From Escherichia phage vB_EcoM_JNE01: 64,000 bases of DNA. Location of the stretch: sequence record OR670491. One strand, 5' to 3'. This document shows, piece by piece, positions 57,165-57,255 of the stretch (position 1 is the stretch's first letter; the number at the start of each line of letters is the position of its first letter). The position numbers and the translations under genes were made by a program. The notes under the pieces are model-generated. The model was not told the DNA's origin and did no database searches. It saw only the letters and a list, made by a program, of their open reading frames with translations.

Positions 57165-57255
57165 GGAAGGGTGGCAGAGCGGTTGATTGCACTCGCCTAC
57201 TAAGCGAGCAAGTGTTAGAAATAACGCTTCGTGGGTTCAAATCCCACCTCTTTCG
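57165..57255 (+). tRNA. type II tRNA, Ser-like, anticodon loop reads ACT
   Basis: Acceptor GGAAGGG/CTCTTTC (two GU), D-stem GCAG/TTGC, anticodon stem CTCGC/GCGAG with loop CTACTAA, long variable hairpin, T-arm GTGGG-TTCAAAT-CCCAC. Confidence 0.5.

Follow-up and report, generated by a model that had tools for sequence, protein, structure and literature searches.

In E. coli, tRNA-Arg(ACG) is the sole tRNA encoded with adenine at position 34 (A34), which is converted by TadA to give the anticodon ICG. For the split Ser/Arg box of codons (AGN), reviews describe A34 as universally missing and state that the tRNAs "prohibited" in bacteria are likewise lacking in phages (PMC8007984). A study from 2026 built such tRNAs artificially to ask why nature avoids them (bioRxiv 10.64898/2026.05.15.725136). 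There, an E. coli Ser-tRNA(ACU), obtained as a G34A form of serV, gave better growth in two or more media and had a low likelihood of mistranslation, and Phe-tRNA(AAA), the sole split-box tRNA with an ANN anticodon that was sequenced, was found partly as I34 in E. coli. An orthogonal tRNA(ACU) with the body of the M. jannaschii tRNA-Tyr was studied in E. coli by Fisk and colleagues (PMC11066159), and read AGU at 9.4%, with AGC and AGA below detection and AGG at 0.36%. The loop of that tRNA was described by its authors as identical to the tRNA-Arg2 loop, reverse-transcription sequencing revealed no inosine, and the authors concluded that TadA has a high specificity for the anticodon and loop of Arg2 (PMC11066159).

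Ser-ACU has been listed in passing in a table for the chlorella virus ATCV-1 (PMC4810235) and in a tRNA array of Acidithiobacillus (PMC4758250). A paper discussing Ser-ACU was not found in the open-access literature, and subscription journals could hold an earlier description. The gene itself is not new, as GenBank has included tRNA-Ser(act) since the record of phage 121Q. The class-wide distribution of tRNA-Ser(ACU) given below appears to be previously undescribed.

The window, i.e. the whole stretch of 64,000 nucleotides of Escherichia phage vB_EcoM_JNE01 (OR670491) that was analysed, belongs to a jumbo coliphage of the genus Asteriusvirus (121Q/PBECO4/G17 group) and has a GC content of 35.5%. 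It is mosaic and not identical to any single record searched, with the best matches shifting from Turkey5 to G17-like phages and then to UE-S1 along the region. The tRNA-Ser(ACU) gene that it carries contradicts the reviews on A34 in the Ser/Arg box, and provides a natural counter-example in a cultivable group of E. coli phages.

The tRNA-Ser(ACU) gene and its neighbours

The gene, its structural elements and the adjacent features are as follows.

57126-57154, + strand: putative sigma-70-type promoter, TTGACT-17 nt-TATAAT, extended by TG at -10; matches the consensus at 11 of 12 positions
57165-57255, + strand: tRNA-Ser(ACU), 91 nt to the discriminator G73 (ARAGORN, Rfam RF00005, RNAfold)
57192-57208, + strand: anticodon arm, stem CTCGC (57192-57196) and GCGAG (57204-57208), loop CTACTAA (57197-57203)
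57199-57201, + strand: anticodon A34-C35-T36 (covariance-model alignment)
57210-57229, + strand: long variable arm, 8-bp hairpin AAGTGTTA-GAAA-TAACGCTT (RNAfold and covariance model)
57231-57247, + strand: T arm GTGGG-TTCAAAT-CCCAC (RNAfold, covariance-model alignment)
57265-57354, + strand: 90-nt tRNA with a CAT anticodon and CCA encoded (ARAGORN, Rfam 50.4 bits, RNAfold)
57360-57432, + strand: third tRNA-like element with a CAT anticodon and no acceptor stem (ARAGORN 'tRNA-Met(cat)')

ARAGORN called tRNA-Ser(act) at 57165-57256. The RF00005 covariance model matched 57165-57255 over the full model (positions 1-71) with 49.9 bits, the gathering score being 29, and with E values of 1e-7 for the whole window and 3e-10 locally. 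RNAfold alone produced a type II cloverleaf with a 7-bp acceptor stem, the 8-bp variable-arm hairpin and a 5-bp T stem. The acceptor stem GGAAGGG/CUCUUUC includes two G:U pairs and begins with G1:C72, G2:U71 and A3:U70, and the variable region appears as a 20-nt insertion in the covariance-model alignment. The gene has no encoded CCA and is followed by CAAAAAA. In the covariance-model alignment, the 7-nt anticodon loop C-U-A-C-U-A-A is flanked on each side by the 5-bp stem CUCGC/GCGAG, and its positions are U33, A34 (57199), C35, U36 and A37, which define the anticodon as ACU, complementary to the serine codon AGU.

A Ser-like type II tRNA with A34 and anticodon ACT had been proposed for this site in a first-pass annotation, and this assignment was upheld by ARAGORN, by the RF00005 register and by the comparison with relatives. 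At the locus, both programs call a tRNA and the identity is Ser(ACT), with neither of the standard anticodons GCT and TGA assigned. The view expressed there that A34 is unusual in this setting likewise holds, for phages as well as for bacteria. Hence, 57165-57255 is confirmed as a real type II serine tRNA gene with the anticodon ACU.

Seryl-tRNA synthetase (SerRS) does not read the anticodon; it reads the long variable arm, the acceptor stem and C11:G24, and the identity set of the E. coli enzyme comprises G1:C72, G2:C71, A3:U70 and C11:G24. Type II tRNAs are distinguished by the long variable arm, which is also the chief element of serine identity, and the discriminator is A73 in the type II tRNAs for Leu and Tyr and G73 in those for Ser. 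The window tRNA has G1:C72, A3:U70 and C11:G24, with G:U instead of G:C at 2:71, and its discriminator (57255) is G. G2:C71 is present in the EJP2 and Munch types of the same tRNA (see below). Among the members of the class recovered from IMG/VR (see below), the variable region is 13-23 nt long in all 52 unique sequences and G73 is found in 42 of the 52; G1:C72 and C11:G24 are each present in 100%, and G73 in 81% as compared with 95% in the GCT controls among the matches listed. In these features the class matches the GCT controls. As SerRS does not read the anticodon, charging with serine by the host SerRS is expected.

The putative promoter is the best site in 56800-57700. The 5' end of the tRNA lies 10 nt beyond the end of the -10 hexamer, and there is an overlap of the -35 hexamer with the stop codon that ends the upstream ORF (56758-57129). 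Judged from its near-consensus sequence, it would drive transcription of the tRNA gene. Two more tRNA-like genes were placed downstream by ARAGORN, at spacings of 9 nt and 5 nt. Since the spacing between tRNA-Ser(ACU) and the tRNA at 57265-57354 is 9 nt, with no promoter or terminator between them, these two are likely co-transcribed.

The tRNA at 57265-57354 includes an extra variable hairpin (GUCA-CAGUUAA-UGAC), an unusual T loop (UUAGAAU) and A73. The same gene is present in G17, Sharanji and phAPEC6, and an ordinary 75-nt tRNA-Met is found at this place in 121Q and slurp01. In Erwinia phage Kaldavass and Xanthomonas phage XbC2, relatives of ~80% identity bear the annotation tRNA-Met. It is odd for CAU to be found on a type-II-like body, and the candidate identities are Met, Ile2 via lysidine, or another.

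The element at 57360-57432 gave an RNAfold z of +0.4 and matched Rfam at model positions 8-63 only. It is a recombination chimera with the breakpoint at ~57366, in which the 5' end of a G17-type tRNA-Asn(gtt) is joined to a tRNA-Met body 97% identical to that of Erwinia phage pEa_SNUABM_47, and the joined segment is shared with phage UE-S1 only. This element is probably non-functional. The broken tRNA is adjoined, on the UE-S1-only segment, by a 565-aa ORF (57440-59137, - strand) that runs against the main strand, 77 of the 80 window ORFs being on the + strand, and has no Pfam match. On the other side of the locus, at 55590-55668 (+ strand), there is a weak Rfam tRNA match (33.3 bits) without an ARAGORN call. 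RNAfold gave it an acceptor stem, an anticodon arm and a T arm and no D arm, with the loop CUUCUAA and the anticodon UCU (AGA-Arg). Its position is that at which G17 and JP4 have a normal tRNA-Arg(tct) directly after tRNA-Ser(tga). In several relatives, HNH homing-endonuclease genes lie between or beside tRNA genes (6935-7922 in the JP4 locus, L012, and also in L007 and L008), which fits mosaic exchange of tRNA alleles in the group.

Conservation and distribution of tRNA-Ser(ACU)

Seventeen GenBank phage records contain the 92-nt tRNA sequence with 100% identity, and it is annotated as tRNA-Ser(act) in the records of 121Q, slurp01, G17 and Sharanji. The tRNAs of G17, 121Q, slurp01, JP4 and Sharanji are identical to the window tRNA at 91 of 91 positions. 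In the same five phages, identity to the window is 66-97% over the 400 nt upstream and 65-96% over the 100 nt downstream. At a flank identity of 85%, which applies to three of the five, drift would be expected to give ~13 differences over 91 nt, and none was observed. This pattern of sequence identity argues for strong purifying selection on tRNA-Ser(ACU).

PBECO4, A4, SD-15_S21, BF17, E9.1, WPEC5 and Turkey5 have a 90-nt tRNA-Ser(GCT) in the slot of tRNA-Ser(ACU), which follows the same upstream ORF and precedes tRNA-Met/tRNA-Asn. Identity across the region is only ~68%, and every stem of this tRNA shows compensatory changes relative to the ACT tRNA. Both Ser(ACT) and Ser(GCT) are present ~900 bp apart in JP4, ph0011, Turkey3 and WPEC3, and in JP4 an HNH endonuclease gene is located between them. 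Sharanji has seven tRNAs, which include Ser(act) and Ser(tga) and no GCT; the ACU tRNA is thus its sole phage-encoded AGY reader. A blastn search of 5,426 E. coli genomes gave no match to the window tRNA, and an origin from an E. coli tRNA was rejected on these grounds.

The loop CTACTAA is found on three diverged backbones in enterobacterial jumbo phages, referred to as the 121Q, EJP2 and Munch types, among which the acceptor stems, anticodon stems and variable arms differ. In addition to a GCT tRNA, EJP2 carries a second Ser(ACT) tRNA, which has the same anticodon arm, differs in the acceptor stem, the variable arm and the T arm, and encodes CCA. The Munch type, carried by Salmonella phage Munch, 7t3, SE_PL, PHA46, fENko-Kae01 and Erwinia phage Hallingskeid, has the anticodon stem ACGGU/ACCGU and the identical loop CUACUAA. 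Its discriminator is A73 (L013, 1000-1090; L057), which is not of the Ser type, and it is otherwise Ser-like. The variable and T arms of the Munch type are nearly identical to those of the PBECO4/RaK2-type Ser(GCT), which suggests a mosaic ancestry.

When IMG/VR was searched with exact-stem patterns and N at position 34, 121Q alone was found, with no G34 form of this backbone. These patterns were too narrow, and it was a looser structural pattern (Ser-type D arm TGGCMGAG, loop CTACTAA, T loop GGTTCRAATCC) that revealed the class. It matched 98 IMG/VR contigs, and ARAGORN called tRNA-Ser(act) in 98 of 98. The matches represent 52 unique sequences, which fall into 30 clusters at 90% identity and 19 at 80%. 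RNAalifold, applied to an alignment of 54 unique sequences, gave as consensus a type II cloverleaf with 25 pairs, in which 99.1% of the cells are standard pairs and double-sided compensatory changes occur in 21 of the 25. The compensated pairs include all seven of the acceptor stem, which lie outside the search pattern.

The matching pattern with the loop CTGCTAA (GCT) gave at least 120 matches in IMG/VR. With the T loop fixed to GGTTCAAATCC, GCT was found in 116 contigs and ACT in 12, and the ACT:GCT ratio is ~0.10 as measured and ~0.18 by extrapolation. This suggests that the window gene is the visible tip of a phage-wide class that is ~10-18% as frequent as the matching Ser(GCU). Both tRNAs occur in one locus in 2 of the 98 ACT loci and in 1 of the 119 GCT loci among the matches listed. 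Given this rare co-occurrence, the shared Asteriusvirus slot and the lack of GCT in Sharanji, the ACT and GCT tRNAs are alternatives.

In 596 Gb of sequence from 185,579 bacterial and archaeal species genomes, the ACT pattern was found in 23 places, 22 of which are Ser(act) calls. These 22 are in Polynucleobacter, in DPANN archaea and on MAG contigs, several of them identical to IMG/VR phage clusters. The Polynucleobacter Ser(act) is clustered with Thr and Gly tRNAs and is of the same type as that of an IMG/VR provirus. Polynucleobacter isolates (L233-L255 set) have up to five Ser(act) copies per assembly, often in the arrangement Thr(cgt)-Gly(ccc)-Ser(act), and, of the four DPANN (Iainarchaeota-type) MAGs with Ser(act), one carries Ser(gct) as well, on the same contig (L250). 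A tRNA-Ser(GCU) is present in nearly all bacteria, and that of E. coli matches the corresponding search pattern; hence Ser(ACU), which is very rare in cellular genomes and common in AT-rich phages, would be enriched in phages over cells.

Other A34 anticodons regarded as 'prohibited' were called by ARAGORN beside Ser(act) in environmental phage contigs of IMG/VR, namely Asn(att) (L076, L079), Phe(aaa) (L049, L105), Tyr(ata) (L018), Ser(aga) (L069) and Leu(aag) (seven loci). Further loci with other A34 anticodons are L019, L050, L072, L075, L088 and L091, and all of these are ARAGORN calls only.

Codon usage, which the first-pass annotation had suggested examining for AGT enrichment, shows AGT to be the commonest serine codon in the window (357 codons as compared with 81 for AGC). 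Carriers were compared per tRNA cluster. The median GC content of ACT carriers is 0.39 (maximum 0.49) versus 0.43 (up to 0.68) for the GCT carriers listed (p=0.02), and the AGT share of AGY is 0.65 versus 0.52, respectively (p=0.03). An AGU-specific excess beyond base composition was not found, as regression on T-ending preference leaves t=0.67. The AGT excess of the ACT carriers is fully explained by a general preference for T-ending codons; AGU-specific enrichment was therefore rejected, and the association with AT-rich genomes alone holds.

Proposed decoding by A34 and alternative explanations

The window loop is equivalent to the loop of E. coli tRNA-Ser(GCU), CTGCTAA, with G34 replaced by A, and to that of E. 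coli tRNA-Arg(ACG), CTACGAA, with G36 replaced by T. The TadA-substrate context U33-A34-C35-G36 is absent, position 36 being U in the window tRNA. With E. coli TadA as the query, no homologue was found in the Asteriusvirus phages or in the window. A Sharanji protein named 'tRNA-specific adenosine deaminase' in GenBank and in the Sharanji paper (WNN14772.1; L015, 47357-47836, - strand) scored 78 bits for dCMP_cyt_deam_1 and 71 bits for ComEB, and 30 bits for the TadA model, the cutoff of which is 150. That name was rejected, as the protein is dCMP-deaminase/ComEB-like, and a phage-encoded TadA acting on A34 was rejected on the same evidence. Sharanji further includes a genuine CCA-adding enzyme, which fits a tRNA gene without an encoded CCA.

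The window gene probably specifies a functional phage serine tRNA that retains an unmodified A34, reads only AGU and supplements the tRNA set of the host. Its own strong sigma-70-type promoter would direct transcription of tRNA-Ser(ACU) together with the downstream tRNA or tRNAs, and the transcript would be processed by RNase P and by 3' trimming. Because no CCA is encoded, CCA would have to be added, by either the host or a phage-encoded CCA-adding enzyme, before the host SerRS charges the tRNA with serine. As the Arg-type UACG context is required by E. coli TadA, A34 most likely remains unmodified. A Watson-Crick A:U pair would then allow AGU to be read and essentially nothing else. Such a single-codon specialist would supplement the single-copy tRNA-Ser(GCU) of the host for AGU, and would replace the tRNA-Ser(GCU) carried by sister phages in the same slot. 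The virus could afford an AGU specialist because AGC is covered by the host tRNA-Ser(GCU), which is single-copy in E. coli. A preference for A34 over G34, which also reads AGU, is argued from efficiency.

The main rival is inosine formation, which is disfavoured. Host TadA or an unrecognised phage enzyme would produce ICU, which would read AGU, AGC and, weakly, AGA, and so make the tRNA the equivalent of Ser(GCU). The loop CTACTAA differs at one position from the TadA substrate loop CTACGAA of E. coli tRNA-Arg(ACG), the native-backbone Phe-tRNA(AAA) is partly I34 in E. coli (bioRxiv 10.64898/2026.05.15.725136), and the occurrence of ACT in the genomic slot of GCT fits functional equivalence. 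However, ACU in the exact loop acquired no inosine and did not read AGC in E. coli (PMC11066159), on a body that was that of the M. jannaschii tRNA-Tyr, and the search for TadA homologues in Asteriusvirus and the window left only the Sharanji candidate, far below the cutoff. Furthermore, ICU would misread the arginine codon AGA, which is frequent (114 codons in the window and 15.7 per 1000 in ACT carriers), and conversion to inosine is accordingly considered unlikely. A role in defence is a poor prospect as well. An altered wobble base could resist an anticodon nuclease of the host or of a competitor, or the phage could destroy and replace the host tRNA; evasion of tRNA-targeting nucleases through changes in the anticodon loop has been proposed for phage tRNAs (PMC10264068), Septu and Retron-Eco7 systems are known to target type II tRNAs, and recombination is concentrated in the tRNA region, in which HNH endonuclease genes are found. 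Against this, the open-access literature yielded no nuclease reported to target tRNA-Ser(GCU) at position 34, and the loop departs from the canonical Ser(GCU) loop at that position only. Codon matching predicts the association with AT-rich genomes, and defence evasion does not.

Two further explanations concern the reading of the gene itself. If the loop were read one position earlier, the triplet CTA at 57197-57199 would make the tRNA an amber suppressor that puts in serine at UAG, and suppressor tRNAs are known to occur in stop-codon-recoded phages. The first-pass annotation had allowed for an off-by-one register of this kind, which is backed neither by the two programs nor by the loop geometry: in the canonical 7-mer loop with U33 and A37 given by the covariance model and ARAGORN, CUA falls at positions 32-34. 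Moreover, TAG, the in-frame use of which it had proposed looking for, serves as an ordinary rare stop and ends 4 of the 80 window ORFs. The coding density is normal under the standard code, simple standard-code ORFs covering ~82% of the window, and TAG makes up 14% of stops in ACT-carrying contigs as compared with 15.5% in GCT controls among the matches listed. The suppressor register was rejected on the covariance-model alignment and the stop-codon usage, and has next to no chance of being correct. There is also very little chance that the gene is a non-functional, drifting relic of a tRNA-Ser(GCU) gene with a G34A mutation. Such an origin would be in keeping with ACU being one transition from GCU, with the missing CCA and with the clearly broken neighbour at 57360-57432, but the complete identity of the 91 nt, shared by 17 records, contrasts with flanks that have diverged to 65-85%. 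In addition, the ACU anticodon is retained on three diverged backbones, the 54 unique sequences have standard pairs in 99% of cells with 21 covarying pairs, and a near-consensus promoter precedes the gene. The pseudogene reading is thus effectively refuted by conservation and covariation.

Comparison with known systems

A broader reading, to which we assign even chances, is that phages, unlike cells, widely carry split-box tRNAs with unmodified A34 as Watson-Crick specialists for U-ending codons in AT-rich genomes, with Ser-ACU the commonest and Asn-AUU, Phe-AAA and Tyr-AUA included. If this is true, the 'ban' on ANN anticodons would not be a chemical impossibility. Cells need one tRNA for both pyrimidine-ending codons, and this constraint would not apply to a virus that merely supplements the host tRNA set. 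The pair of 121Q or Sharanji with E. coli would then be a ready natural system for decoding by unmodified A34, in which the old question of what unmodified A34 decodes, and why it is avoided, becomes testable. The same comparison bears on the reading of phage tRNAs as codon-specific supplements.

With tRNA-Ser(GCU), represented by E. coli serV and the PBECO4/RaK2 type, the window tRNA shares the type II cloverleaf, the long variable arm, G73 and C11:G24, as well as the loop C32-U33-N34-C35-U36-A37-A38, the genomic slot in sister phages and the AGY codon box. It differs in having A34 and not G34, so that AGC should go unread, and in its lack of an encoded CCA, and it is ~68% identical to the phage Ser(GCT) type. 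Like tRNA-Arg(ACG), it is encoded with A34, and the two loops are alike at 6 of 7 positions. Unlike that tRNA, it has U36 in place of G36, which is outside the known specificity of TadA, it has a type II body, and it belongs to a split box, in which inosine would cause misreading of arginine codons as serine.

Phage suppressor tRNAs (CUA) are likewise phage-encoded and have a non-standard anticodon, whereas the anticodon here is ACU and there is no recoding signal. Mycoplasma tRNA-Thr(AGU) and the Leu(AAG) and Thr(AGU) tRNAs of some Firmicutes have an unmodified A34 and are, together with the window tRNA, natural and rare cases of encoded A34 outside Arg. However, those tRNAs serve four-fold boxes, in which misreading is synonymous, whereas the window tRNA serves the split Ser/Arg AGN box. 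The engineered ACU tRNAs (PMC11066159; bioRxiv 10.64898/2026.05.15.725136) have the same anticodon, the same loop (according to the authors of PMC11066159) and the same type of host cell. They were AGU-specific, in the case of the M. jannaschii tRNA, and were tolerated or beneficial; they are laboratory constructs, whereas the tRNA-Ser(ACU) gene described here is a natural viral gene that has been maintained by selection.
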